Below are positions 1,382-28,562 of a DNA stretch of 37,327 nucleotides, piece by piece. The notes beneath the pieces are model-generated. The model had not been told where the DNA came from. It saw only the letters and a list, made by a program, of their open reading frames with translations, and did not search any database. Location: IMG/VR virus record IMGVR_UViG_3300029886_000148. One strand, given 5' to 3'. How positions within the stretch are numbered: position 1 is the stretch's first letter; every line of letters starts with the position of its first letter. A program made the translations under genes and the position numbers. This stretch comes from a virus. Taxonomy: Duplodnaviria; Heunggongvirae; Uroviricota; Caudoviricetes.

Positions 1382-3067
1382 GTGAATATAAACGTCGCCG
1401 AATTGTTAAATGGGAATTACATTCTGTTATTATTTGTGGTCCTCGCGCTTGGGCTATGTCTCGGGAAATTACGACTTGGTTCGATCCAACTGGGTAATTC
1501 CATTGGCGTTTTAGTCGTATCGCTGTTATTAGGCCAACAACATTTCAGCATTAACACCGACGCGCTTAATCTTGGCTTTATGCTGTTTATTTTCTGCGTC
1601 GGGGTCGAAGCCGGACCGAACTTTTTTTCCATTTTTTTTCGCGATGGGAAAAATTACCTAATGTTAGCACTGGTGATGGTTGGCAGTGCGCTGGTGATCG
1701 CCTTAGGGTTAGGTAAGCTGTTTGGCTGGGATATTGGCCTGACGGCCGGTATGTTAGCAGGCTCTATGACGTCAACACCGGTTTTGGTCGGTGCTGGCGA
1801 TACACTGCGTCATTCCGGCATGGAAAGCAGGCAGCTCTCACTGGCACTGGATAATCTGAGCCTCGGGTATGCCTTAACCTATTTAATCGGTCTGGTGAGT
1901 TTGATTGTTGGTGCGCGTTACTTGCCGAAATTGCAGCATCAGGACTTACAGACCAGCGCCCAGCAAATCGCCCGCGAACGTGGCCTGGACACAGATGCCA
2001 ACCGTAAGGTTTATTTGCCGGTGATCCGCGCCTACCGCGTCGGCCCGGAGCTGGTAGCCTGGACCGACGGCAAAAATCTGCGTGAACTGGGTATTTATCG
2101 ACAAACCGGCTGCTACATTGAACGTATTCGGCGTAACGGGATTCTGGCAAATCCAGACGGTGATGCCGTGCTACAAATGGGCGATGAAATAGCGTTGGTA
2201 GGCTACCCCGACGCCCACGCCCGACTCGATCCCAGCTTCCGTAACGGCAAAGAAGTTTTCGATCGTGACCTTCTCGACATGCGTATCGTCACTGAAGAAG
2301 TGGTCGTTAAAAACCATAACGCTGTTGGCAAACGCCTGGCACAACTGAAGTTGACCGATCACGGTTGCTTCCTTAACCGCGTCATTCGTAGCCAGATTGA
2401 GATGCCGATTGATGACAACGTCGTGCTTAACAAAGGTGACGTTTTACAAGTCAGCGGCGATGCCCGCCGGGTAAAAACCATCGCCGATCGCATCGGCTTT
2501 ATCTCGATTCACAGCCAGGTCACTGACTTGCTGGCATTCTGCGCCTTCTTTGTTATTGGGCTGATGATCGGGATGATCACCTTCCAGTTCAGCACATTCA
2601 GTTTCGGCATGGGAAACGCTGCCGGGTTGTTATTCGCCGGAATTATGCTGGGCTTTATGCGTGCTAACCACCCGACCTTCGGTTACATTCCGCAGGGCGC
2701 ATTAAGCATGGTGAAGGAGTTCGGCTTGATGGTGTTTATGGCAGGCGTTGGTCTGAGCGCTGGTAGCGGTATTAATAACGGCCTGGGCGCGATTGGCGGT
2801 CAGATGTTGATTGCCGGATTGATTGTCAGTCTGGTGCCAGTGGTTATCTGCTTCTTGTTCGGTGCTTATGTATTGCGAATGAACCGCGCACTGTTGTTCG
2901 GCGCAATGATGGGCGCACGCACCTGCGCGCCGGCAATGGAGATCATCAGTGATACAGCTCGCAGTAATATCCCGGCGCTGGGCTATGCGGGCACTTACGC
3001 AATCGCCAACGTCCTGCTGACGCTGGCAGGGACAATCATCGTCATGGTATGGCCAGGATTAGGATAA
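1382..3067 (+). CDS. ybjL: putative transporter YbjL (AAE-family permease with two central TrkA-C/RCK_C domains)
   Basis: 561-aa ORF with GTG start; TM-rich N- and C-terminal halves flank a soluble central region; sequence matches my recollection of E. coli YbjL ([20 protein letters not shown]...). Confidence 0.85.
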
Positions 3068-3303: not shown

Positions 3304-3522
3304 TCAAAGAGAGAGCGCCACCTGTCCTGATTTCATTGGATGCGGCTGAACCGGATTTGACTCTTTTGGCGTTGCAATCGAACGAACAAAAGTTTCATGG
3401 GTAACAAAAGTATGGCTGCAGTTAATGTTCTGGCACTGGTTGTAACGCTCTTTGGTCAATGAAGATACCTGAAAACTGCTGCGAGTATGGGCGGCACTTC
3501 CACACAGTGGGCAAATCATCAT
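3304..3522 (-). CDS. ogr: late-gene transcription activator Ogr (C4 zinc finger)
   Basis: MMICPLCGSAAHTRSS...ERYNQCQNINCSHTF has the CxxC...CxxxxC pattern and length (~72 aa) of P2 Ogr. The track ORF (to 3555) has an 11-aa extension I consider unlikely. Position downstream of D matches P2. Confidence 0.85.
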   Translation of the reverse strand: MMICPLCGSAAHTRSSFQVSSLTKERYNQCQNINCSHTFVTHETFVRSIATPKESNPVQPHPMKSGQVALSL

Positions 3523-3612: not shown

Positions 3613-4713
3613 TCATTCCATTTCGAAATCATCAATCCTCACTTCAAGCTCCAGACTGGTCGTAAAACCGTTATCCGGGCTGACGGTATGTGTCAGAGTC
3701 GTAATGGTCCATTCCGCATCATCTATCGGCTGTTTAAAGCCGCTGACCTTCACCGGCATTTCCGTATAGAGATCAGCCCGCCCCTCAGCGAGCTGCAGGG
3801 AAAATGAAGCGACCCCACGCTGCAGACGTTCCCATTGCATTTTTGCTGCGCGCTCTGCATTGCTCCGGTTGGCATAAGTGCGATTAAGTACCAGCACGTT
3901 TTCATCCGTACCCACCAGGTAATCGCCCTGCTTCGCTTCCGGCTCTTTCTTCTGATTCTTCGTTCTGCGCTTACGCTTTACCGTAGTGCTTTCTTTCTTC
4001 GCGGGTTCGCGGGTATGCAACCAGCTGGCAATTACGCCCGTGTAGGCTCCGCGATCTGCCAGGGTAAAGCGGTGACTGTCGCCGTCCTTGCGTGTGATAG
4101 TGATCACCGGCAGTGGTTTACCGCTGGCGCTTTTACCCTGTCCCTGTCGGATGAATAACAGATTGCCATTTTTCACCGACGCAATAGCACCGTACTGGCG
4201 CGCCAACCGCATCAGAAAACTGCCGTCACTCTCATTGGTCTGGTCTATATGTTCCACGAGTTTATCTGACAGGTCTTTACCCAGTGCCATCTTCAGTTTG
4301 TGCCGCGCAGCTATTTCCTTCACCACTTCCCCAACGGTGGTCTTGTGCCACGACTTTTCACGGCGGGTATTCAGCGTTTCACGAAAATCAGCACTTCGCG
4401 CCCGGATAGTCAGGCGGTCCGGTGCGCCAGTGTGTTCAATCTCGTCCACCGTGAATGCCCCTTTCGGGAAAAGCGGCTGCCCCTTCCAGCCCAGCGCCAG
4501 CGTAATGACCGCACCACGGCGCGGCAGCACGATTTTTCCATCGGCGTCGTCCAGCTCCAGATCAAGCTGGTCCGCTTCAAATCCCCGGTTATCCGTCAGC
4601 GTCAGCCCCATCAGGCGGTTGTCCAGCACAGTGGTGATATCCCTGCCTTCAATACTGATGCTGAATGCCGGAGTTTTGTTGCCTTTGTTAAGCAGTTCAG
4701 AGCTGAAATTCAC
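3613..4713 (-). CDS. D: tail protein D (late control gene D)
   Basis: 366 aa; position between U and ogr and overall similarity to P2 gpD as recalled. Confidence 0.85.
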   Translation of the reverse strand: MNFSSELLNKGNKTPAFSISIEGRDITTVLDNRLMGLTLTDNRGFEADQLDLELDDADGKIVLPRRGAVITLALGWKGQPLFPKGAFTVDEIEHTGAPDRLTIRARSADFRETLNTRREKSWHKTTVGEVVKEIAARHKLKMALGKDLSDKLVEHIDQTNESDGSFLMRLARQYGAIASVKNGNLLFIRQGQGKSASGKPLPVITITRKDGDSHRFTLADRGAYTGVIASWLHTREPAKKESTTVKRKRRTKNQKKEPEAKQGDYLVGTDENVLVLNRTYANRSNAERAAKMQWERLQRGVASFSLQLAEGRADLYTEMPVKVSGFKQPIDDAEWTITTLTHTVSPDNGFTTSLELEVRIDDFEME

Positions 4714-5195
4714 GACAGAAGCCCTCCCACCGTTTTACTGATATCGCTTAAGGCAGATGTTGCCGTTCCCTGCAGATTATTCAGCTGCGCACTGAGATCA
4801 CCGAACATATCGGACAGGGATTCATCCACCCGTTTGAGCGACAGGGTGAACTCAATCCGGCGCGGTATACCGTCGCGGAAAAACTCCGTTTTAGTCTGAT
4901 TCAGTCCCTCAATCACATACATGCCATAAATCGTGCCGCTGCCTTCAATCAGGGGCCATGCTTTCCCCTGTTCTGCCATCTGCTCCAGTGCCAGCAACGA
5001 CAGCCTGCCACCTGTTATCTCCGGCATAAGAACACCGGAAAGCGTCAGCATGTCGTTGTCCGGTCCCAGAAACTGCGTGGACGGACGTCGGTTTACCCGG
5101 CTGTTTGCCGCATGTCGCCAGCTGCGTTGATACTGCAGCTCCTGATACGGCACGGTGCGCAGCATAAACACGTACAATCCCAGCACCATCATCAT
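4710..5195 (-). CDS. U: tail protein U
   Basis: 161 aa; overlaps D start by 4 nt; N-terminus MMVLGLYVFMLRTVPYQELQYQRSW resembles P2 gpU. Confidence 0.8.
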   Translation of the reverse strand: MMMVLGLYVFMLRTVPYQELQYQRSWRHAANSRVNRRPSTQFLGPDNDMLTLSGVLMPEITGGRLSLLALEQMAEQGKAWPLIEGSGTIYGMYVIEGLNQTKTEFFRDGIPRRIEFTLSLKRVDESLSDMFGDLSAQLNNLQGTATSALSDISKTVGGLLS

Positions 5196-8100
5196 GCGTC
5201 GTATCCCCCCTGATCGCTGTAGTTACTCCTGGCTTTTGCCTTCAGCCTGCGTTCACGTTCATCAAGCTGGCGGGCCACCTCCCGCGCAATATCCTGCGCA
5301 CTTTGTCCTGGCTGCGTCTGGATGATGATCTGCGTCGGTGCCTCAATCCTGTAAACGGGCGGCACAGTGGCTGCGCGACTCACAATTGCTTCTCCACCTT
5401 TCGCGGGAAGTGCCAAAGGGTGCAACGGTGGAAGCTCTGCTGGCGCGGCAGCAACGCCCATCATTCCGGCAACAACGGCAGCCAGTGCAGCTGTATTTCT
5501 CCGGCTGGTCACATTTGCCGGGCCGTTAACAATTTCCGGCCCGTTTTCACCGACGATGCCAAACTGCCCGCGCGGGATATAGCCGCCGCTGTCATACATC
5601 CCCGCAAAGCCATATCCCCATGACGGAAAACCACCCGATGGCATCATCACTTTACCGTCTGTATTCACCGTCGCAGGTTGCTGACGCGTCACACTTTCCG
5701 GTAGTTTCGCCTTTGCGGCCTCTTTACTGACAACGCCGAGTTTCTCCAGCAACCAGGAAACGCCGGATTTCAGGGAGTCCAGCGGATGCATGACCATATT
5801 CAGCCCTTCCGCCAGTGCCTCCCCGAATCGCCGCCCCATTGCCGCTGCACTCTGCAGTTCGGCAGAGGTCGACTTAACGGGCGTCAGCAGATCAGTAAAC
5901 CAGCCCCACAGCGCCTGTACTTTGTCGCCAATCCACTGGAACACGGGCTTAAGCGGTTCGAATGCTGCACTGACGGGACCTGCCGCCGCTTTGAATCCTT
6001 CCACCACGCCACCAAGAAATGCGGTGATGGGTTGCCAGTATTTCCAGACAACCAGCGCCACGCCCGCCAGTGCAGTAACCACAAGACCTATCGGACTGAG
6101 CAGAGCACCTAACAGACCAGATACGGCATACAGGGCAACGCGCAGCATCGCCAGTGGACCAGATGCCAGTACTCGCAGCTCCGTGCCTGCGGCGGCCAGT
6201 CCACCGCGCAGTACCGCCAGAGGATTCATAAACATCACAGCAACAGCACGTAAACCGGATAATCCAGACCGCAAAAGTGCAACCGGCGCACCTGCTACAG
6301 TTTTCAGGACATTTCCCGTCAGTGATGCCGTGCGGCGCAAAGACGACAACGGCGCAGTAAGTAAACCTGCGGCGTTGCCCGATGAAGCAAGCCCGCGTCG
6401 CAGCAGTGCCAGTGGTGCGCCAGCCAGCCAGGACAACGCGCTGCTGGTTCGGGTTACTGCTGCCGTAACGGAAGGTAACGTTTTGATACCCAGCACAGAG
6501 AACCCCAGACGGATCACTGCCAGCGGCCCCAGCACTGCAGCTAACACCACCGCTAAGGTGCCGAGGCCCACGGTAACCGCAGCCACAACAGCCGCTGCTT
6601 TCATCAGTGTGCCCGTCAGTTCCGGGTTAGCTTCCACCCAGCGACGCAACGCCCCCGTGACGCTTTTCACCGTGTACAGAATATCCATCAGCGGCTGGCG
6701 CAGCGTTTCACCCAGGCTGCTGAAGGTGTTCTGCGCTCCGGTTTTAACCAGCAACCACTGAGCAGAAAGTGAGTCCTTGTTGATGTCGGATTCTTTCTGC
6801 ATGGAACCGAGCGCATCATTGCCCGCTGTCAGCTTTAACTGGCGCTGCAGTTCCGGCAGGTTGTTTGCCAGTTTCGCCGCGTCATCGCCAAACTCTTTAC
6901 CAAACAACATGGTCATGGCAGACAGACGCTTGTCCTGCGGCAGTGCGTTCACCTTCTCCAGCACACGCTGGATAGTTCCCATCGCATCCTTCGTCATCTG
7001 CTTTTCAATCACTTCAGGATTGAGTTTCAGCAGATTCATCCCTTCAAAGAAACTCTTGCTTTGCATGGTGGCAATGGACAATTCACGCACCATCGCGTTT
7101 GCTGCACTGGCTGCAACCTCCGGCGCAGCGCCCAGTGTCAGAAAGGTGGAACCCAGTGCCGCCGCTTTACGATAATCCAGACGGTCAGCCACACCGCCCA
7201 GACGTTGCATCACATCAATGATGTCCGCCCCTTTCGACATGGCGTTATCATCCAGATAGTTCAGCGCATCGCCGAGCTGTTCAATATTGCGGGTAGGTAT
7301 TTTGTAGAGCTGGGCGATTTTCCCCAGGCTTTCTGACAGTTCATCCGCTGGCAGCTCAAAGGCTGTTGCCGCCTTTGCTGCCGTACTGGCGAAGGCCAGC
7401 AGGTCACGTTTCTGGTCTTCCCAGCTGTCGTCAGGGTTTGCGACGTTCATGCGCGCACCACCTTCAACCAGTGCAGCGAAGTCCACCGCACCGTTTTCCA
7501 TCGGCAACTGTTCGCTGGCAGCCTTGATGGCATCCTGCATTTCATAAAAACGTGCAGTACGGTTTCCATTATCGTCACGCAGACCATTGACCTGCTTTGC
7601 CACACCTTTCATGGCATCTTCTATGCTGGTATAGCTTTTTACTGCCGCCATCACTGGCGTCCCCATTGCCAGCCCTGCAGCCGTGGTAGTGGCTCCGGCT
7701 CCTGCAATACGATCGCGCACCTCCAGCGAACGGGCATAACTGGCACGCGCCGCATTCATCCTGCGCTGAGCTTCACCCAGTCGCTTCAGCCGCGCCTCCT
7801 GTTTCGACAATTCCTGGTTATAACGTGATGTTTCACGGGCTAAACGGGCAGTTGCTCCCGCATCATCTTTCGCAGAAATTCCCGCCCGGTACAGTTCTGC
7901 ACGCACAAGCGCCGTTTGCTTCTGCAAATATTTTTGCTGTTCTTCCAGGCGTTGGACTGCCAGCGTTTGCCGACCTAAAGCCACAAGGTGCCGTTGTGAT
8001 GGTTGTTCCATCGCCTCCAGCTCAGAGCTAAGCAAATTAGCCTTCTGTCTGGCATAGTTCAGCCTGTCGCCTAACTTCTTGTTATCAGCCTGCAGCTTGC

Positions 8101-8269
8101 GAAATTTTTCCAGGCTATTACCCGCCTGATTGAGTTGCTTTAATGCGTCACGGGAGTTTCTGATTGCGCCAGCCAGCTCTTTCGAACTGGCCTGTGCAAC
8201 ACGGAATGGGCGGGTGAGTTTGTCAACCGCATTAAGAATGACCTGCAGCCGCAGGTTGTTATCACTCAT
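5192..8269 (-). CDS. T: tail tape measure protein
   Basis: 1025 aa; coiled-coil-rich N-terminal half, Ala/Gly/Leu-rich repetitive middle, position after E/E'. Confidence 0.9.
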   Translation of the reverse strand: MSDNNLRLQVILNAVDKLTRPFRVAQASSKELAGAIRNSRDALKQLNQAGNSLEKFRKLQADNKKLGDRLNYARQKANLLSSELEAMEQPSQRHLVALGRQTLAVQRLEEQQKYLQKQTALVRAELYRAGISAKDDAGATARLARETSRYNQELSKQEARLKRLGEAQRRMNAARASYARSLEVRDRIAGAGATTTAAGLAMGTPVMAAVKSYTSIEDAMKGVAKQVNGLRDDNGNRTARFYEMQDAIKAASEQLPMENGAVDFAALVEGGARMNVANPDDSWEDQKRDLLAFASTAAKAATAFELPADELSESLGKIAQLYKIPTRNIEQLGDALNYLDDNAMSKGADIIDVMQRLGGVADRLDYRKAAALGSTFLTLGAAPEVAASAANAMVRELSIATMQSKSFFEGMNLLKLNPEVIEKQMTKDAMGTIQRVLEKVNALPQDKRLSAMTMLFGKEFGDDAAKLANNLPELQRQLKLTAGNDALGSMQKESDINKDSLSAQWLLVKTGAQNTFSSLGETLRQPLMDILYTVKSVTGALRRWVEANPELTGTLMKAAAVVAAVTVGLGTLAVVLAAVLGPLAVIRLGFSVLGIKTLPSVTAAVTRTSSALSWLAGAPLALLRRGLASSGNAAGLLTAPLSSLRRTASLTGNVLKTVAGAPVALLRSGLSGLRAVAVMFMNPLAVLRGGLAAAGTELRVLASGPLAMLRVALYAVSGLLGALLSPIGLVVTALAGVALVVWKYWQPITAFLGGVVEGFKAAAGPVSAAFEPLKPVFQWIGDKVQALWGWFTDLLTPVKSTSAELQSAAAMGRRFGEALAEGLNMVMHPLDSLKSGVSWLLEKLGVVSKEAAKAKLPESVTRQQPATVNTDGKVMMPSGGFPSWGYGFAGMYDSGGYIPRGQFGIVGENGPEIVNGPANVTSRRNTAALAAVVAGMMGVAAAPAELPPLHPLALPAKGGEAIVSRAATVPPVYRIEAPTQIIIQTQPGQSAQDIAREVARQLDERERRLKAKARSNYSDQGGYDA

Positions 8270-9277: not shown

Positions 9278-10450
9278 TTACGCGCTGACCTGGCTGGCGA
9301 AATTCACCAGGTACTGATCGGTGATGCGCTGGCGCAGCATCAGATTTTCAAGTGGCGGCACTGGCGTGTAGTCGTAGTCGATGGTGAGTTTTCCGGCTTT
9401 AAGCGTGTCTTTGTCGTTCACCGACTCGTCCAGCCAGCAATCACCACCAATGAGATAGCCCTGACTGACCAGGCTGCGCATTTTGGCGCGGATACCTTCG
9501 ATAATGTCGCGGGCCAGCGACGGGTTCAGCGGTTTGTCCACCGCCCACATGTGTGCTTCTGCCATCGTGTCCGTCAGCACCTGCGCCGTGCGGGTGTAAT
9601 TTTCGAAGGCAAAGAGCGAGTCATCACTCAGGCAGCGGGAACCCCAGAAGCGGAAACCGTCTTTACGCACAAGCGTGGTGACGTCGTTCTGGTTCAGCAG
9701 ACCTGCATCGGTTGCCGGGTCCTGCAGATCCCAGAACACATCTGCAGAAATTCCGGTGACACCGTTCACGCCCACGTTGGACAGGCTTTTGTGCCACCCG
9801 GTCTGCTCATCAATTTTGGCACGCAGACCAAGCGCACGGGCGGTGGCATATGCCGTTGCTTCGGCATTCAGCACCGTGTCCCAGCCAGTAAAGTCGGGCC
9901 AGATCAGCATTCCTTCGCGCTGGCTGAAGTTTTCACGGTAAGTGATCGCCTCCTGCACCGTCTTGCAGCCATACGCTGACAGGTAAGCAAACCCACGCAG
10001 GCTTTGCGCCACACTCAGCAACTCAGTAGCAACGGCTTTGTTATCGTGACCTGGCACGCCGAGAATGCGCGGTTTAACGCCGAGCTGTGTCTGGGCAGAT
10101 AACAGTGCTTTCATGCCTGTTTTTTTACCTTCAGCAGTCACTGCACCGATGATATTGGTCGTGGTTTCTTCTTCCGTTTCACCCTGCGGCACACGCACAA
10201 CAACGGTCACGGGTTTTGCCTGGTCAGAGATGGCATCCAGCGAACGGGCCAGCGTGCCGGACTCACCCGCTTTACCGCTGGCAGTCAGCACGTCAGTGAT
10301 CAGTACGGGTTTATTAAGAGGAAACATTTTTGCATCGGCATCATCGCCCGTGCAGACCATACCCACGATGGCGGTGCTCACCGTGGTAATGGATCGGGTG
10401 CCTTCGTTGACTTCAACAACGCGCACCCCGTGGTGGTAATCCTGAGCCAT
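9278..10450 (-). CDS. FI: contractile tail sheath protein FI
   Basis: 390 aa; size and position match P2 gpFI. Confidence 0.9.
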
Positions 10451-10526
10451 AGTGGCGAACCTCCTGATTGGATTAGGCTTCGCCCTATGTTGAAGTGATT
10501 GTGCCTGACAAACAGCTAAGCGCAGT

Positions 10527-10544
10527 TGTACCGTTATTCATACA
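10527..10544 (-). promoter_or_regulatory. putative Ogr-binding dyad (TGT-N12-ACA) of the FI late promoter
   Basis: TGTACCGTTATTCATACA lies ~80 bp upstream of the FI start codon; P2 late promoters carry a TGT-N12-ACA element near -55 (established knowledge). The match is to the dyad pattern only. Confidence 0.45.
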
Positions 10545-10592
10545 AAATGATGGTATTTGTCTGCTTGCAGGGATAATCAACATAATGCTGAT

Positions 10593-11159
10593 TCAGGGGG
10601 ATTCATTGCTCTTATTTGCCGGAAATTTTCTATAAATTGTGGAAACACCCACATCAAAAATCAGTGCAATACGCTGTCTTGATTCTCCGGCCTCGAGTAA
10701 ACGTCCAATCTGTGCCCACTGTTCGGTCGTCAACTTAGGACGGCGTCCACCTACTCTGCCTTTAGCACGAGCTGCAGCCAGCCCCGCCCTGGTACGTTCA
10801 ACTATCAGTTCGCGTTCCATTTCAGCCAGGGCCCCCATGACATGAAAAAAGAAACGGCCCATTGGGGTGCTGGTATCAATACTGTCAGTCAGGCTTCGGA
10901 AATTCACGCCACGCTGGCGCAACTCTTCTATCAGCGTAACAAGATGCCGCATACTGCGCCCCAACCTGTCCAGCTTCCAGACAACCAGCGTGTCTCCTGC
11001 CGATAGTGTCCTGAGCAGCTTTTTCAGCCCCGGTCTGTCGGACTTGGTGCCACTGATTTTATCCTCAAAAATCCGCTCACATCCCGCACAGTTCAGTGCA
11101 TTGCGTTGCAAATCGGTGTTCTGGTCATTTGTTGACACGCGTACATAGCCAATAAGCAT
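10593..11159 (-). CDS. serine DNA invertase, Gin/Pin/Hin family
   Basis: From the internal ATG: MLIGYVRVSTNDQNTDLQRNAL...TLVVWKLDRLGRS...GRFFFHVMGALAEMERELIVERT...; near-identical motif set to Mu Gin / e14 Pin as I remember them, with catalytic Ser in YVRVST and a C-terminal HTH. Confidence 0.9.
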   Translation of the reverse strand: MLIGYVRVSTNDQNTDLQRNALNCAGCERIFEDKISGTKSDRPGLKKLLRTLSAGDTLVVWKLDRLGRSMRHLVTLIEELRQRGVNFRSLTDSIDTSTPMGRFFFHVMGALAEMERELIVERTRAGLAAARAKGRVGGRRPKLTTEQWAQIGRLLEAGESRQRIALIFDVGVSTIYRKFPANKSNESP

Positions 11160-11214
11160 GATCATCCCCCTGAATAAAAACCGGGGATGATGCCAGTTAG
11201 CCGTAATCTCTGCA

Positions 11215-11240
11215 TTTTCTTAAACGTTGGTTTGGGAGAA
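11215..11240. repeat. invertase crossover site, left (gix/hix-like 26 bp)
   Basis: TTTTCTTAAACG-TT-GGTTTGGGAGAA; the inner 12-bp half plus core is a perfect inverted copy of the inner half of the site at 12826..12851. Confidence 0.6.
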
Positions 11241-11738
11241 GGCTCTGCATTACCTGTCGGCGTGCCTGTTCCGTGGCCTTCCGCCACTCCGCCGACAGGC
11301 TGGCTGAAATGCAATGGTGCGGCTTTTTCTGCTGAAGAATACCCGGAACTGGCAAAGGCTTACCCGACAAATAAATTGCCTGATTTACGCGGTGAATTTA
11401 TTCGTGGCTGGGATGATGGGCGTAGTGCGGATGCGGGGAGAACAATATTATCCGCTCAGGGCGATGCCATACGTAATATCTATGGTGAGTTCAAGACTGT
11501 AAACACCGAAAATTATTCAATATGGGAATCAGTAGGCTCGTTTAAGGGGGCAGTGGTGCCTTTGAACCCCTCAACGAACAATAGTTATTTCTCCTTAGTC
11601 AGAAGTATGGTGACAGAAAGGTCCGAGGGCGGTGTTTACCCAAAAGTGATTGGCCTTGATGCTTCAAGAATTGTTCCAACTGCAAACGAAAATCGACCCC
11701 GTAACATTGCCTTTAATTATATCGTGAGGGCTGCCTGA
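11229..11738 (+). CDS. silent alternative tail-fibre C-terminal segment (Sv'-like), promoterless
   Basis: Frame open from the crossover site; encodes GLGEGSALPVGVPVPWPSATPPTGWLKCNGAAFSAEEYPELAKAY...NIAFNYIVRAA, a tail-collar-type fibre C-terminus. The GLGE codons are in frame with the GLGE of H at the right crossover site. Confidence 0.7.
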   Translation, partial: GLGEGSALPVGVPVPWPSATPPTGWLKCNGAAFSAEEYPELAKAYPTNKLPDLRGEFIRGWDDGRSADAGRTILSAQGDAIRNIYGEFKTVNTENYSIWESVGSFKGAVVPLNPSTNNSYFSLVRSMVTERSEGGVYPKVIGLDASRIVPTANENRPRNIAFNYIVRAA

Positions 11739-12343
11739 TGGATAAAGCTATATTAAATAAGGAACTCATCGCCACAAAGGCGGGAGATATTACCGTTTAT
11801 AATTATGATGGTGAAACACGAGAATATATTTCCACATCAACCGAATATCTTGCTGTGGGTGTTGGTATCCCGGCATGTTCCTGTTTAGATGCTCCTGGCT
11901 CATATAAAGCTGGTTATGCAATTTGCCGTTCTGCAGATTTTAACTCATGGGAATATGTGCCAGACCATCGCGGTGAAATCGTCTATAGCACCGAAACAGG
12001 AGAATCAAAAGAAATCACAGCTCCGGGTGATTACCCTGAAAAGACAACCACTATCGCCCCGTTAACGCCATACGATAAATGGGATGGTGAGAAATGGGTG
12101 ACGGATACCGAGGCACAGCATAGAGCAGCAGTAGACATGGCAGAAACACAGCGGCAGTCGCTGATTGATGCTGCAATGGTTTCCATTAGTCTGATTCAAC
12201 TGAAATTGCAGGCCGGGCGGAAGCTGACGCAGGCAGAAAACACCCGACTTAACGCCGTGCTGGATTACACTGACGCGGTGATGGCAACAGATACCAGCAC
12301 CGCGTCAGATGTCATCTGGCCAGTTCCTCCTGAGACGGTTTAA
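11738..12343 (+). CDS. tail fibre assembly protein (alternative, tfa')
   Basis: 201 aa directly coupled to Sv' (start overlaps its stop); size and composition typical of Mu U / P2 G-type fibre chaperones. Confidence 0.75.
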   Translation: MDKAILNKELIATKAGDITVYNYDGETREYISTSTEYLAVGVGIPACSCLDAPGSYKAGYAICRSADFNSWEYVPDHRGEIVYSTETGESKEITAPGDYPEKTTTIAPLTPYDKWDGEKWVTDTEAQHRAAVDMAETQRQSLIDAAMVSISLIQLKLQAGRKLTQAENTRLNAVLDYTDAVMATDTSTASDVIWPVPPETV

Positions 12344-12599
12344 TCTCAATCAGAATGGGTTCTCCCTTCTCGTTAACAGATATTTCCATTCCTTCAGGGA
12401 TTTCAGATGCAGTAAAAAACCAGTTATCTTCTGGTAATTCAACAGCCCCGGTCACGTCATGAAGACCGGGGATTACTTCAGTCAAAGTAACAGGATTAAA
12501 CAGGCGCACAATAAACCCTCCAGGAAAAAGCACTTGTTGATGGTTTTCCGTCGTACATCTGGCAGCGGACATAAAAACCGGTATTAGTGACCTGGTCAT
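12312..12599 (-). CDS. putative short tail-fibre chaperone for the currently expressed H variant (start uncertain)
   Basis: 95-aa ORF immediately downstream of H, inside the invertible segment; overlaps the H 3' end, so the real start may be internal. No motif recognised. Confidence 0.3.
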   Translation of the reverse strand: MTRSLIPVFMSAARCTTENHQQVLFPGGFIVRLFNPVTLTEVIPGLHDVTGAVELPEDNWFFTASEIPEGMEISVNEKGEPILIEIKPSQEELAR

Positions 12600-13887
12600 C
12601 CACGATCATTGAAACGTGAACGTTATTAGATGTGCTCCCGTAATCCGTTCTTATTCTTTCCGCTATGCTGATAAAACGTGAAAGCTTAGGTAGCGCAATT
12701 GGATAAACGACTTTAGCCAGTCCATTATCATTAGAACCCCCCGTTCCAAAGACTTCTATTGCACCATCTGACCAGCGTATCCACGCACCATTGGCATTAG
12801 CTCCTCGCTGAATGACATATCTGGCTTCTCCCAAACCAAGGTATGCGAGAAGACCAGCTACATCCTTTCCACTCAAATTAGTCAGCGTATTGTCCAGCGG
12901 TTGTTTGCCTGCCAGCGCATTAAGCATTGTCGTGGCAAAGTTCGGGTCATTCCCCAGCGCCGCTGCCAGTTCGTTCAATGTATCCAGTGCCGCAGGTGCA
13001 GACCCCACCATTGCTGCAATCGCCGATTTCACAAAAGCTGTAGTGGCAATCTGTGTATTGTTGACCGACTGTGCCGCAGTAGGTGCTGTTGGCGTTCCGG
13101 TGAGTGCAGGACTCAACAGCGGCGCTTTTTGTGCCAGCGCATTGTTAATGGTGGTACTGAATTTCGGATCATTGTTAATGGCTGCAGCTATTTCTTTCAG
13201 TGTGTCCAGCGTGGCTGGCGCACCATTAATAAGGGCTGTCAGTGCCGCCTGAACAAACGCGGTGGTCGCAAGCTGCGTAGTATTATTCCCCGCCGCTGGC
13301 GTTGGCGCTTTTGGTGTCCCGGTAAACGCCGGACTTTCTTTCTGTGCATACTGTGAATGCGGGTCCGGTGCGGCAAGATGTTTTGCCATCAGGTCATCCA
13401 CGTACACCTTCAGCTCCAGTGCCTTGTCATCCACATACTTGCGGGTTGCCAGCACTACAGCAGGGTCGATTTTCAAGGTGATATTGTCCGTGCTGCTGGT
13501 AATCAGCACCATGCGCACGGTCTGGGTGCGCCCGCTGCCTTCAGCCAGTTGCGGCTTATAGCTTTCCGGGCAGTTGCCCACGGCAATCAATGCACCTGAT
13601 TCATCAAACAGGCCCACTTCACGTATCCACCAACCACCCTCGTTTTCAGGGATCACCTGTTCAGCAATAATCTGGCTGCTGTTCTGCGGGTCGATATAGA
13701 GCATATTCAGCGCAGCCCGGCGTTTCTCATTCACCAGTGCAGTCTGCTTTGCGTCCGGCGTTGGCAATACTCCGCCGCCATCGCCCACCGCCATATGGGT
13801 AATTTTTAGCGGCACACCGAGCGCGGCGGCGCTGGCAAGTTTCGCCGCGCCAATATCCGTCAGCAGGGTATAAAATTTTGTGCTCAT
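12496..13887 (-). CDS. H: tail fibre protein H (constant N-terminal part 12839..13887 + currently expressed variable C-terminus 12496..12838)
   Basis: N-terminus MSTKFYTLLTDIGAAKLASAAALGVPLKITHMAVGDGGG resembles P2 gpH; two ~70-aa internal repeats; the crossover site falls at codons AYL-GLGE. Confidence 0.9.
   Translation of the reverse strand: MSTKFYTLLTDIGAAKLASAAALGVPLKITHMAVGDGGGVLPTPDAKQTALVNEKRRAALNMLYIDPQNSSQIIAEQVIPENEGGWWIREVGLFDESGALIAVGNCPESYKPQLAEGSGRTQTVRMVLITSSTDNITLKIDPAVVLATRKYVDDKALELKVYVDDLMAKHLAAPDPHSQYAQKESPAFTGTPKAPTPAAGNNTTQLATTAFVQAALTALINGAPATLDTLKEIAAAINNDPKFSTTINNALAQKAPLLSPALTGTPTAPTAAQSVNNTQIATTAFVKSAIAAMVGSAPAALDTLNELAAALGNDPNFATTMLNALAGKQPLDNTLTNLSGKDVAGLLAYLGLGEARYVIQRGANANGAWIRWSDGAIEVFGTGGSNDNGLAKVVYPIALPKLSRFISIAERIRTDYGSTSNNVHVSMIVDDQVTNTGFYVRCQMYDGKPSTSAFSWRVYCAPV
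12826..12851. repeat. invertase crossover site, right (within H)
   Basis: TTCTCCCAAACC-AA-GGTATGCGAGAA; the inner half TTCTCCCAAACC + core is the exact reverse complement of 11227..11240. Confidence 0.6.
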
Positions 13888-14489
13888 GGATTCACTCTCA
13901 TTGTGTCAATAACATGGACCGCCCCGCCTTCATGCGCGGTGCCACCGGAAATAATCGTTTCGTTGATATACGGATAGATCGTGATTTCTTCGCCAAGATA
14001 GCTGGCGGCTCCCACCCAATACGGGCCGCTGGTCTGCAGATTGATGGACATGCCGATCATGTGGCGGCTACATGGTTTGGCATCGCTTATCAGTCGCTCA
14101 AGTTCCAGATAGGTATCTTCAGTGATGCCCTGGTCCTGCACGCCGATATCCAGGCGAAACGTGCCCGGTGCCTCTCCGGTTTGCCACCACTCAATAATGC
14201 GGATCAGAAAGCCGAACGGCTCCACCACCCGCCGCACGGCACTGGTGGTCCCTTTATGCTGATGAATATAAAAAGCATCCTTCACCACCTGGCGCTTGAC
14301 GCTTTCTGTCCAGCCTTCGTCCCAGCGATCCACAGAGAACGCCCAGGCGAGATAAGGCAGGAAGCTGACCGGGCAGGTAGCCGGATTCCACAAGTCACGA
14401 AGCGGCACCTGCAGATCAGAAATCCCGCTGCAGGTTTGCGCCAGTCGGCGCTCCAGTGGTGTTGAACCCGGTGGCAGCAGACTATTCAT
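13884..14489 (-). CDS. I: baseplate assembly protein I
   Basis: 201 aa between J and H, as in P2. Confidence 0.8.
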   Translation of the reverse strand: MNSLLPPGSTPLERRLAQTCSGISDLQVPLRDLWNPATCPVSFLPYLAWAFSVDRWDEGWTESVKRQVVKDAFYIHQHKGTTSAVRRVVEPFGFLIRIIEWWQTGEAPGTFRLDIGVQDQGITEDTYLELERLISDAKPCSRHMIGMSINLQTSGPYWVGAASYLGEEITIYPYINETIISGGTAHEGGAVHVIDTMRVNP

Positions 14490-15390: not shown

Positions 15391-15736
15391 TCTCTGCTCC
15401 TGTTGATACGGAAAGGGAAACAGGCACACCGTTATTACGCCGCCCGGTCAGCTCCACCACCATTGAACCGTCAAAATTGCTGTTAATGGTGATGGAATCC
15501 AGCGTCAGCCGTGGCTCCCAGCGACTCAGCGCCACATACACTGCCGACATGACCTGCAGGCGTAATGCCGGATTTTGTGGCTGATCTATTAAAACCGACA
15601 GGAGGGAACCATATTCCCGGCGGGCAATACGGCTACCCTGCGGTGTCAGCAGAATGTCCCGCACCGACTGGCGCAGATGATCAATATCAGTAATGACTTT
15701 GCCGCTGGTATTGTTCATCCCGCTATAAAGCGTCAT
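15377..15736 (-). CDS. W: baseplate wedge protein W
   Basis: 119 aa between V and J; matches P2 gpW size and position. Confidence 0.8.
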   Translation of the reverse strand: MTLYSGMNNTSGKVITDIDHLRQSVRDILLTPQGSRIARREYGSLLSVLIDQPQNPALRLQVMSAVYVALSRWEPRLTLDSITINSNFDGSMVVELTGRRNNGVPVSLSVSTGAENGSD

Positions 15737-16311
15737 ACCGGGCCTCCGGTTGTGTCGCCGCCTTTCAGGACGCCAGTATGCTGATGCGCATCAACGACGA
15801 TCCCGTTAGAACTCATCACTCCGCCGCCCTGAGTAACGCCACCATTGACCACCACTTCGCTGTTAATACGCGTGCGGTCAGCCTCCAGCACAAACTCACT
15901 GGTTTTCAGGGTAATGTTGTTGGCAGCCTCAATGACCATGGATTTGATGCCCCTGACATACCAGCGCCCGGTGGCGGGTTCATATTCAAACCAGCCGCCG
16001 TCAGGATGCTCTGTCACGCAGGCATCCGCCGACGTCGACGGCGGTGCAAACTGATTCGAATAGATGGCGGGCAACGCAAAGGCGGTTTCCAGATTGCCGC
16101 CCAGACTCAGCAGCACCACCTGTTCGCCTTCCGATGGTCGCCACCATGTCCGGGCATTCCCGGCACGCAGCGTCAGCCAACTGATCCAGTTGGTTTCTAA
16201 GTCACCCGTTTTCACCCGGCAAAGCCAGTTCTTCCTATCCACTTCGGTAACTACACCAGTGCGGATCAGGTTGGTGATAAGGCGCATGATTTCGGTTAAT
16301 TGTGCGTTCAC
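15733..16311 (-). CDS. V: baseplate spike / central hub protein V
   Basis: 192 aa; OB-fold-like N-terminus and Gly-rich C-terminal tip (GGVTQGGGV...GGDTTGGPV); position as P2 gpV. Confidence 0.85.
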   Translation of the reverse strand: MNAQLTEIMRLITNLIRTGVVTEVDRKNWLCRVKTGDLETNWISWLTLRAGNARTWWRPSEGEQVVLLSLGGNLETAFALPAIYSNQFAPPSTSADACVTEHPDGGWFEYEPATGRWYVRGIKSMVIEAANNITLKTSEFVLEADRTRINSEVVVNGGVTQGGGVMSSNGIVVDAHQHTGVLKGGDTTGGPV

Positions 16312-26893: not shown

Positions 26894-27211
26894 TTATATA
26901 CCACATACAAAATTGATCTTAACGCTTTTATCAACAACAAGCAGAGAAGTGCCAACAGACTTAATAAATCCCAGTTCATACTCTTCTGAATGCGTCATTG
27001 TAATAATATGAACAGGAACAAATAAATCAAGCTCCCGCAGCTTTCGCTTCAATAATAAACCATCGACACAATCACCTATCACAAGCATATCAATATCATT
27101 TGCATCGCAAAAACTCTTTAATGCTGACCCAAATACATATACATCCACCATATATAAACTATGATGGATAATAACATCACAGATCGATTCAATCGTATGT
27201 TTAAAATTCAC
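26894..27211 (-). CDS. minimal nucleotidyltransferase (MNT/Pol-beta-like)
   Basis: VYVFGSALKSFCDANDIDMLVIGD fits the GS-x9-13-DxD nucleotidyltransferase signature; ~105 aa; GTG start overlaps the upstream stop; AT-rich. Confidence 0.7.
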   Translation of the reverse strand: MNFKHTIESICDVIIHHSLYMVDVYVFGSALKSFCDANDIDMLVIGDCVDGLLLKRKLRELDLFVPVHIITMTHSEEYELGFIKSVGTSLLVVDKSVKINFVCGI

Positions 27212-27870
27212 TACCGTGAAATTCTTCGTAATAAATCACCCAACTTGTAAAGCTCCACCCCGATACTTTGAGCAGCCTCTTTTGCCTGAGTCGTCAATCG
27301 TCCATTAGGATTGGAGGAAAAAACAACATCACAATTGCCATGCAACCCTATCGCATCTCTTACAGAACCCGCTGTCATATCATAATCATTCGCAGCGATA
27401 ATAACTAAGTCCGCCAAGCCACGTCTTTTAAGTCTATATTTTTTGTTGGTTTCTCGCTCTACAGAGCTTACATGTGAATGTTGATTGAACACTCTATTTA
27501 TAAACAAATGCTCTTTATCAAGATGCTCAAGCGGATTATTAGCTCTTAAAGAAGATGCAATATGCCCAAATGAACCCACTCCTATTTTCTTTTGTTCTAG
27601 TAATCTCATTGCATCACCAGAGATAAATTCAACACCTCCCTTGACTGATAGAAAATCAATTTTTTTATTGTCTAGGTATTCATTTATCTCAGGACATGTT
27701 ATCCGGCCAGTATTGATTGCCCCGATCAAATAGGTGTCACCCTGTGTAGTATTAATCACTAAAGTACCATCACCTATCACCTCTATATTTTCGACACATT
27801 TATTTTCTTGTAATTTTCCTGCCATCCATGAAATATAGCCTTCACTCGCATTTATGCTCATTGGATTCAT
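27211..27870 (-). CDS. hypothetical protein, 219 aa (middle gene of the three-gene cassette)
   Basis: Open frame translationally coupled on both sides; no motif assigned (only a C-terminal R-x5-H, RDAIGLH). Confidence 0.55.
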   Translation of the reverse strand: MNPMSINASEGYISWMAGKLQENKCVENIEVIGDGTLVINTTQGDTYLIGAINTGRITCPEINEYLDNKKIDFLSVKGGVEFISGDAMRLLEQKKIGVGSFGHIASSLRANNPLEHLDKEHLFINRVFNQHSHVSSVERETNKKYRLKRRGLADLVIIAANDYDMTAGSVRDAIGLHGNCDVVFSSNPNGRLTTQAKEAAQSIGVELYKLGDLLRRISR

Positions 27871-28562
27871 CCTATAAATAGTTCAGATGCAGCTTCTGGA
27901 AACCTACTACCATTAGCATCGGTTAAGCCCAAATGTTTTGATTCAAAGTCATCTATATGAACACAAAGCTTTGAAAAAACATTCTTCTCATCTTCACTCA
28001 TGAGGTGATAGTTTTGTTCAACCAGTCGCTGTACTTTTCTATTGTTGGGTAAGATATGAGATTGTACTTTTCTTAACCATACTTCTGCATTTGGATTTTC
28101 AGGGTCAACGCTGTTCTCTTGGGTTGGTCCATATGTTACAAAAATGGTATTGTTTTCTCTGAAGTATTTTTCTAACTCCTGTCTAACAGATTCTCGATTG
28201 TCATATGTTTTAACACCAAAGGTTGCATTTATTTTATCAATATGGCCGTTTTTCCAAGAGCGGATAATTTCATCAGTAAAATGTTCCTCTGCCTTATCAA
28301 TTGTCGTATGGCAATTAGCACATAGAAGAATAATGTTGTCAAAATGACCTCTCTGCTCATCAGTTAGATCAGCATTGGTTCTAGGTCCATTATCAATGGC
28401 ACTAAAGATGTGAGCAAGTTCTCCAATTGTTATATTTTTGTCGCCAGCATCAACAAACAAAGGTTGCAAGCATTGTGGATTTTGGCAAAAGCCACCTGAG
28501 CTGGCAAAAAGCCGTCTAACTGTATTAGCGTTTGGGGAAGCTTTTCCCCTACTGCAAGCCAT
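27867..28562 (-). CDS. HNH-motif protein with an unassigned C-terminal domain, 231 aa
   Basis: CQNPQC ... ELAHIFSA ... NIILLCANCHTTID resembles an HNH/zinc-finger nuclease core in the N-terminal ~90 aa; the rest is unassigned. Confidence 0.6.
   Translation of the reverse strand: MACSRGKASPNANTVRRLFASSGGFCQNPQCLQPLFVDAGDKNITIGELAHIFSAIDNGPRTNADLTDEQRGHFDNIILLCANCHTTIDKAEEHFTDEIIRSWKNGHIDKINATFGVKTYDNRESVRQELEKYFRENNTIFVTYGPTQENSVDPENPNAEVWLRKVQSHILPNNRKVQRLVEQNYHLMSEDEKNVFSKLCVHIDDFESKHLGLTDANGSRFPEAASELFIG

Follow-up and report, generated by a model that had tools for sequence, protein, structure and literature searches.

The stretch of DNA analyzed here, IMG/VR record IMGVR_UViG_3300029886_000148 (37,327 nucleotides (nt) in full, hereafter the window), carries a P2-like (Peduoviridae) prophage and corresponds to the chromosome of Escherichia coli strain M11957, with 100.0% identity over the 3.6 kb tested. 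The tail-fibre region of this prophage comprises (i) the fibre gene H, with a constant N-terminal part and a variable C-terminus; (ii) a second, silent H C-terminus encoded on the opposite strand; (iii) a small gene downstream of each of these two C-termini; (iv) two inverted 26-bp crossover sites; and (v) a serine DNA invertase gene located outside the segment that the sites enclose (Table 1). This arrangement very probably constitutes an active inversion switch of the Din family (Gin/Cin/Pin/Hin-type), set in the operon that encodes the tail fibre of this E. coli prophage.

The invertase gene most likely starts at the ATG at 11159, which aligns with the starts of gin, cin and pinE and agrees with the 567-nt gene called by the Prokaryotic Genome Annotation Pipeline (PGAP), resulting in a protein of 188 amino acids (aa). 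Starting instead at the ATG at 11165, further upstream, the open reading frame (ORF; 10593-11165) would encode 190 aa. The protein comprises the Pfam domains Resolvase (E=2e-53) and HTH_7, matches PHROG 125 'DNA invertase' (E=1e-101), and displays 85% identity to PinE from the e14 element, 77% to Cin from phage P1 and 74% to Gin from phage Mu, in agreement with the earlier description of a Gin/Pin-type invertase beside the sites. Residues 1-184 align without gaps to the Gin structures 3UJ3 and 4M6F (3UJ3, E=8e-93), preserving the catalytic Ser9, and the scores are 312 bits for Gin versus 122 bits for γδ resolvase. The gene shows a ratio of nonsynonymous to synonymous substitution rates (dN/dS) of 0.015, and its distance to the left crossover site is 62 bp.

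The residues that contact Fis and the recombinational enhancer support the same assignment. The numbering of Hin is offset by +1 relative to that of the window invertase and Gin. In Hin, the contact residues are K47, R48, K51, Q151, R154 and L155, which are kept in invertases, but not in resolvases (PMC3798978). The window invertase displays K46, K47 and R50 together with the motif ...aQiGRLL..., aligned to K46, R47, K50 and eQaGRLL of Gin, whereas γδ resolvase differs at these positions.

Both crossover sites lie where the first-pass annotation had placed them. The inner half-site plus core, the 14 nt TTCTCCCAAACCAA, forms a perfect inverted repeat between the left and right sites, the full sites agree at 21 of 26 positions, and a repeat finder ranks the pair as the top inverted repeat of the region (27 nt, 81%). 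Allowing up to 2 mismatches, the 14-mer occurs in the 37-kb window only at the two sites, compared to 0.27 occurrences expected from shuffles. The reference gix and cix sites, taken from the Mu and P1 records, provide twelve half-sites that define the consensus TTnTCnnAAACC; the alignment to gix, hix and cix proposed earlier was run with gix and cix, and the four half-sites of the window fit the half-site consensus with one deviating base. A scan with the degenerate gix/cix consensus, allowing up to 5 substitutions, disclosed no credible third crossover site in the window, the extra match at 3042 having 5 mismatches and looking like chance. The sites are in inverted orientation and, read in the same sense, both have AA as their core dinucleotide; such identity of the cores is needed for the ends to religate once the subunits have rotated by 180 degrees.

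Comparison of the individual sites highlights their close relationship to those of known switches. The left site matches the e14 site beside pinE at 25 of 26 positions, and the right site matches P1 cixR at 21 of 26. The e14 repeats TTGGTTTGGGAGAAGG and CCTTCTCCCAAACCAA are the mapped inversion points for PinE and PinQ (PMC12529663), and both contain the 14-mer, which flanks the e14 P segment identically at its two ends; the inner 16 nt of the left site, TTGGTTTGGGAGAAGG, are the repeat reported for the P segment (PMC12529663). The H translation places the right site at ...LAYLGLGE/ARY..., within the H codons YLGLGE, as had been proposed from the junction AYL-GLGE, and the window H shares the codon context 'YLGL.E' at the crossover with the S genes of Mu and P1.

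The constant part of H shows 98% aa identity to its counterpart in strain 64, whose prophage is described below, with a dN/dS of 0.06. Residues ~186-331 (~12895-13332, minus strand) comprise two tandem copies of a ~72-aa motif, P-A-[FL]-TGTP...ATTAFV...LDTL.E.AAA..NDP.F..., hinted at by the direct repeats D13 and D14, which is a typical fibre-shaft repeat. On the other side of the segment, the frame of the silent tip, GLGEGSALP...NIAFNYIVRAA, opens at the left site. The first-pass annotation had described this frame as a collar-type fibre C-terminus, beginning with an in-frame GLGE and followed by its own chaperone gene, and the searches confirm both elements, a Collar domain (Pfam, E=9e-16; PHROG 523 tail collar fibre, E=3e-75) and a 201-aa Caudo_TAP gene. 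The first 66 aa of the silent tip are 100% identical to e14 StfE; the tip diverges in its center and is conserved at its ends. Similar collar tips are widespread, and the one in the H protein of a P2-like E. coli phage, for instance, shares 52% identity with the silent tip. The 201-aa chaperone displays 89% identity to e14 TfaE and a dN/dS of 0.15 relative to the strain 64 prophage. PGAP joins the silent half-gene to a 14-aa leader (11187-11738, plus strand) and annotates the product as an independent 'phage tail protein' of 183 aa; in the opposite orientation, it annotates a 127-aa 'hypothetical protein' fragment.

The expressed tip is of a different type, with no similarity to the collar tip. 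The two tips are unrelated in sequence and the current one measures ~114 aa, as the first-pass annotation had it; the 95-aa ORF that it reported downstream did not stand, the gene located there being instead the conserved 65-aa gene at 12312-12509. The expressed tip occurs in Enterobacteriaceae prophages, and its relatives in the phage collection are limited to three records with 32-35% identity, including the isolated phages S164 (35%) and Xanthomonas phage DIBBI (32%). Its AlphaFold model, of moderate confidence (predicted local distance difference test (pLDDT) of 71), finds as top four fold matches in the PDB the C-termini of R1/R2 pyocin fibres (probability 1.0, template modelling (TM) scores of 0.52-0.56), with E-values of 1e-3 to 2e-2 and sequence identities of 18-20%. 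The dN/dS of the expressed tip is 0.23.

The GTG start of the 65-aa gene overlaps the H stop codon and is preceded by a GGAGGG ribosome-binding site. Its family, which is unannotated and found in prophages across Enterobacterales, numbers 141 clusters with lengths of 57-65 aa and combines a strongly conserved N-terminal stretch of 53 residues (MRLFNPxTxTEVIPGxHDxTGAIELPxDNWFF...) with a variable tail; compared to the strain 64 copy, the gene shows a dN/dS of 0.23. Both cassettes and the constant part of H are under purifying selection. The protein falls in PHROG 5400 and displays a weak match to the Tfa family PHROG 188 (E=4e-4). Its model (pLDDT 88) gave no meaningful match in a PDB fold search, and the best match in BFVD, a weak one, is a 60-aa 'tail fiber assembly protein' from Pantoea phage LIMEzero (probability 0.97, E=0.06). 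Comparison by BLASTP with the neighboring 201-aa Tfa, e14 TfaP and the 146-aa Tfa of KP12 revealed no similarity. A recently truncated Tfa was considered as the origin of the 65-aa ORF and rejected, given the nil BLASTP result and the consistent 57-65 aa length of the family. These sequence and fold matches make the 65-aa product a candidate for a mini tail-fibre assembly protein; it could represent the smallest class of such factors, or serve another purpose, such as capping the tip or acting as its adaptor.

Table 1. Features of the predicted inversion switch and of its prophage setting, in window coordinates.
Feature	Position	Strand	Description
Din-family serine DNA invertase	10593-11159	minus	188 aa; Pfam, PHROG, Gin structure alignment
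Putative recombinational (Fis) enhancer	11070-11141	minus	gene nt 19-90, equivalent to annotated cin enhancer
Candidate extended -10 of invertase promoter, TGGCATCAT	11187-11195	minus	between left site and start codon
Left crossover site	11215-11240		26 bp; core TT at 11227-11228; TTTTCTTAAACG-TT-GGTTTGGGAGAA
Silent H C-terminus, StfE-type collar tip	11227-11738	plus	169 aa from GLGE; without own start codon
TfaE-type assembly chaperone for silent tip	11738-12343	plus	201 aa; Pfam Caudo_TAP, E=2e-29
Strong stem-loop	12270-12308		inverted repeat I6; where the convergent cassettes meet
Conserved 65-aa gene	12312-12509	minus	PGAP hypothetical protein; downstream of expressed tip
Expressed variable H C-terminus	12496-12839	minus	114 aa from LGLGE
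Right crossover site	12826-12851		26 bp; core AA at 12838-12839; TTCTCCCAAACC-AA-GGTATGCGAGAA
H constant N-terminal part	12840-13887	minus	349 codons; Pfam Phage_tail_fib, E=5e-65
Tail-fibre gene H	12496-13887	minus	tail operon, after V, W, J, I
Gene I	13884-14489	minus	between J and H
Gene V	15733-16311	minus	then W, J, I, H on same strand
Sheath FI	9278-10450	minus	beyond invertase region; then tube FII, E
Tape measure	5192-8269	minus	then gpD
Host Asp-Al_Ex/TrkA_C permease gene	1382-3067	plus	left end of window
Prophage integrase	36119-37327	plus	right end of window

The evidence that the segment inverts comes from the comparison of complete genomes. An inverted version of positions 10400-14000 (3601 nt) was built in silico and searched in 5,426 complete E. 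coli genomes. Inversion of 11227-12839 fuses H codons 1-349 in frame to the collar tip, so that the H product, 463 aa in the window orientation, becomes one of 519 aa, and both are annotated in RefSeq genomes. The inverted 3601-nt sequence was found in one piece and with 100% identity in four genomes, M7424, M00057, CNREC_004-43 and OY754371; in M7424 and M00057 it occupies the same chromosomal position where M11957 has the window orientation, and the M7424 annotation includes a 1,560-nt H gene, which corresponds to the predicted 519 aa. In addition, the sister strains 64 and 61 carry a 92%-identical prophage at identical coordinates, in which the inter-site sequence of one is the exact reverse complement of the other (1688/1688 nt), and the orientation in DG341-1 is opposite to that in DG342-2, DG343-1 and DG351-2, in records of equal length. 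Among the complete genomes with the cassette pair of the window, 36 display the window orientation and 55 the inverted one. The junction of the H constant part with the short tip is present in 35 genomes and that with the collar tip in 441, the latter count being raised by the many other combinations of cassettes in which the collar tip begins with the same conserved stretch. The first-pass annotation had predicted an in-frame exchange of the H C-terminus and had regarded a single orientation as evidence against a switch; the exact inverted junctions and the annotated 519-aa fusion agree with the prediction, and both orientations exist among public genomes. Judged from these assembled sequences, the comparison shows that inversion of the segment occurs in nature, recurrently, and exactly at the predicted crossover.

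According to the mechanism proposed for the locus, invertase dimers would bind the two inverted 26-bp sites and then synapse, very probably with a Fis-bound enhancer at the 5′ end of the invertase gene. Cleavage at the central AA/TT, 180-degree rotation and religation would flip the ~1.61-kb segment 11227-12839. The late V-W-J-I-H operon would be read from outside the segment, so that only the cassette adjoining the constant part of H would be expressed; we infer this arrangement, with the promoter outside the segment and the distal cassette silent, from the order of the genes. In the window orientation, the operon would thus encode the 463-aa H with its short, pyocin-foot-like tip, followed by the 65-aa gene, and in the other orientation the 519-aa H with the StfE-type collar tip, followed by the TfaE-type chaperone. 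A population of lysogens would release two types of virion, presumably with different receptors, and the two orientations would accordingly be expected to differ in host range.

The proposed enhancer relies on the P1 record, which annotates the cin enhancer at cin nt 19-90, a region to which the window gene aligns with high identity. Fis-like 15-mers of the form G-N13-C are located at both ends of the putative enhancer, at 11124-11138 and 11075-11089; they are common to the window gene, gin and pinE, and the distal one is also present in cin. Some 97 bp separate the proximal 15-mer from the crossover, and the corresponding spacing in the native hin locus is ~100 bp (PMC3798978). Taken with the contact residues described above, these elements make it very likely that the window invertase depends on Fis and the enhancer.

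The region between the left site and the start codon of the invertase contains the candidate extended -10 TGGCATCAT, conserved in the window and e14, with TGGCATGAT in the upstream region of Mu. This candidate is located outside the segment, and therefore expression of the invertase should be independent of orientation. A scan of 10400-13000 with the σ70 consensus found no promoter for the silent cassette or for the invertase-side fragment ORF. Within the segment, the scan detected a single σ70-like site, at 11475-11503 on the minus strand and hence antisense to the silent cassette, and it gave no more sites than shuffles would lead one to expect. A weak terminator-like hairpin (11179-11198, minus strand), followed by TTTATTC, is also present between the left site and the invertase start and could stop read-through of the late operon before the invertase gene; in P2, the V-operon terminator after G occupies the equivalent place. 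At the meeting point of the two convergent cassettes, the strong stem-loop falls within the last part of the TfaE-type gene and immediately beyond the point where the 65-aa gene stops, with an RNA folding energy of -37.9 kcal/mol (z=-6.2) and without a U-tract, and may act in both directions as a transcript-end or stabilizing element.

A chance inverted repeat or an assembly artefact would dispense with a switch. The repeat is short, and 5 of 100 shuffles in the 14-mer test gave two matches at up to 2 mismatches. However, the repeat is exact, inverted, conforms to the 26-bp family consensus, lies beside an invertase, and falls in the same codons as in Mu, P1 and e14; moreover, repeats of 14-26 bp cannot cause long reads to be misassembled, and each orientation is represented by many independent complete genomes. 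This explanation is effectively refuted, and its probability is negligible. A fossil switch, intact in appearance but with no meaningful flipping, would attribute the differences in orientation to old events or to recombination between prophages. The related isolated phage S164 has clearly degenerate sites, so such switches do decay, and the two orientations compared here come from separate isolates. On the other hand, genomes with 100% identity over 3.6 kb include both orientations, as do the sister strains 64 and 61, whose segments have the same coordinates and are exactly reverse-complementary; these two findings argue for recent, repeated flips. The very low dN/dS of the invertase, its catalytic and Fis-contact residues, and the perfect inner 14 nt of the sites also speak for a functional system. 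A fossil is therefore highly improbable, although less so than chance. Somewhat less remote, yet still improbable, is a domesticated, host-serving phase variation, in which the flip would matter mainly in the lysogen and the leader-plus-tip ORF on the invertase side would mask receptors against phages. This ORF consists of MMPVSRNLCIFLNV plus the collar tip, 183 aa in the window, and becomes a 127-aa fragment with the other tip after inversion. The e14 chimera StfE2 has been reported to block T2 adsorption (PinQ/StfE2; PMC12529663), e14 shares the same architecture, a homologous 13-14-aa leader ORF upstream of GLGE and the same repeats, and leader-plus-tip fragments are widely annotated as proteins of 119-127 aa. 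Nevertheless, the module resides in an apparently complete P2-like prophage, for which a virion function is simplest, and the σ70 consensus scan detected no promoter for the fragment ORF. A host-serving role could also be additional to the virion switch rather than an alternative to it.

Several observations weigh against an active switch of the virion fibre as set out above. One base of the sites departs from the half-site consensus, the G at position 12 of the outer left half-site; of the 12 half-sites compared, 11 carry C at this position. The same G is present in the e14 site beside pinE, and e14 still inverts. The consensus σ70 scan of 10400-13000 found no promoter for the invertase. A synonymous-site test for the enhancer, which counted how often the codon is also invariant where the window gene, gin, cin and pinE all encode the same amino acid, gave 5 of 19 invariant codons inside the putative enhancer versus 10 of 94 in the rest, a difference short of significance (p=0.13), and the conservation of this region is inseparable from protein-coding constraint. 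The differences in orientation between isolates attest inversion in the lineage, not the rate of switching in this prophage, and other Pin-type invertases of the host could act in trans. Finally, the evidence for a difference in host range consists entirely of the unrelated sequences and folds of the tips, and that for a chaperone role of the 65-aa gene of weak sequence and fold matches. The active inversion switch nevertheless remains the reading that we hold to be very probable.

The gene order of the prophage follows that of P2, V-W-J-I-H and FI-FII-E-T-U-D, and the Pfam domains found in the window include Tail_P2_I, Phage_tail_fib, sheath, GPD, GPA and integrase. Further to the right, the window comprises the gpA replication gene, a Dam-type methylase and the integrase. 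The capsid, tail, gpA and integrase genes and all neighboring tail genes are intact, and the prophage is thus apparently complete. The host permease gene at the left end places the left prophage boundary between 3067 and gpD at 3613. In the reference P2 genome, the interval between G and FI lacks a recombinase and is occupied by the accessory gene fun(Z) together with the terminator of the V operon, and the window invertase occupies the interval where P2 has fun(Z); the statement of the first-pass annotation that canonical P2 has no such switch therefore holds.

Two other loci of the prophage deserve mention. A Septu anti-phage pair (16300-18281, plus strand) is located on the opposite strand between the baseplate gene V and the tail-completion genes, and comprises a 442-aa PtuA (PADLOC PDLC00268, E=1e-139; AAA_21) and PtuB, a 217-aa HNH protein (PDLC00321, E=2e-99); it is a defence moron in an unusual place inside the tail operon. 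In addition, positions 27211-28562 (minus strand) contain two co-oriented ORFs of 231 and 219 aa. The 231-aa ORF displays an HNH_2 domain and matches PADLOC PDC-M68A (E=2e-29) and the N-domains of endonuclease effectors of the cyclic-oligonucleotide-based anti-phage signalling system (CBASS) type, and its 219-aa partner gave zero matches in the same domain and defence searches. By these matches, the pair is a candidate for prophage defence cargo.

Fibre switches of the Din type are familiar from Mu, P1 and e14, and earlier work has measured inversion in P2-like prophages of E. coli. The only mildly new element of the window locus is the composition of the short cassette. The locus provides a fully mapped example, including the crossover, both protein products and both cassettes, and illustrates that a functional inversion switch is recognizable from raw sequence. 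RefSeq enters the silent half-genes and the 127/183-aa fragments as independent 'phage tail protein' or 'hypothetical protein' entries, which form separate database families, and orientation has to be considered when predicting the host range of P2-like prophages or engineering the receptor-binding proteins of tailocins and phages. The public complete genomes hold natural orientation pairs (36 versus 55) that are open to mining. The short tip and the 65-aa gene form a compact, uncharacterised receptor-binding cassette that could serve in swapping receptor-binding proteins. More speculatively, and with rather low probability, the 114-aa tip with its R-pyocin-foot-like fold and the 65-aa protein might represent an uncharacterised receptor-binding module in its own right, or the locus might involve fragment-based masking of receptors. 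If the invertase-side fragment does mask receptors in lysogens, the switch would be a combined device for host range and superinfection exclusion.

By its sequences and layout, the window switch is closest to the Pin/P-segment module of e14 from E. coli K-12 (stfP-tfaP / tfaE-stfE / pinE). In both, the invertase gene flanks the segment, its 5′ end being ~60 bp away from the site, and the cassettes converge, with their chaperone genes, a candidate one behind the short tip of the window, overlapping at the 3′ ends; the silent cassettes are homologous, of the stfE/tfaE type. The two elements differ in that e14 is a decayed element with a remnant fibre gene, whereas in the window the P2-type tail operon is complete and H has its full length; e14 has StfP/TfaP, with a 137-aa Tfa, as its second cassette, compared to the 114-aa tip and 65-aa gene of the window, and the e14 segment measures 1.8 kb versus 1.61 kb.

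The Gin/G segment of Mu and the Cin/C segment of P1 share with the window the recombinase family, the 26-bp site architecture, and the combination of a constant part with two C-termini, each with a downstream assembly gene, although for the short tip of the window this gene is a candidate only. The position of the invertase gene relative to the site in Mu matches that in the window, whereas P1 cin points toward the segment. At 3-4.2 kb, the Mu G and P1 C segments are larger than that of the window; unlike it, they have long variable parts and two complete chaperones, U and U′, and the phage backbones are also different. The core dinucleotide is GA in Mu, and AA in the window and P1. Multi-site shufflons, such as p15B Min, comprise at least three sites, unlike the window, which has only two, the segment between them being filled by two cassettes.

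Among phages and prophages of the P2 type, two prophages from enteropathogenic E. coli (EPEC) E2348/69 display orientations that coexist in cultures, as revealed by sequencing and polymerase chain reaction (Goldberg et al. 2014; PMC4272514), one locus having two sites and the other three, the latter a shufflon with four variants (PMC4272514). As described, these loci share the biological setting of the window, with an invertase exchanging the C-termini of the fibre within a P2-type tail module; the three-site locus departs from the window in the same way as Min. A DNA invertase has also been described in the receptor-binding hotspot of P2-like phages (bioRxiv 10.1101/2024.10.15.618418). The isolated P2-like Escherichia phage S164 encodes a homologous invertase (89% identity) and a silent cassette with a short tip and a small ORF. 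Its crossover sites, at 3466-3491 and 4817-4842, are degenerate and poorly complementary, which suggests that the S164 switch is frozen; it is the only isolated phage with a similar short cassette, and with such sites it is of no use as an orientation control. Beyond phages, the R-type pyocin fibres (PDB codes, 6CT8, 6CXB, 6CL5 and 6CL6) contain the foot fold nearest to the model of the expressed tip and likewise belong to P2-type contractile tails; unlike the window H, they are not switched by inversion. Carotovoricin Er, in turn, comprises a P2-type tail module in which an invertase swaps the fibre C-termini, as predicted for the window.

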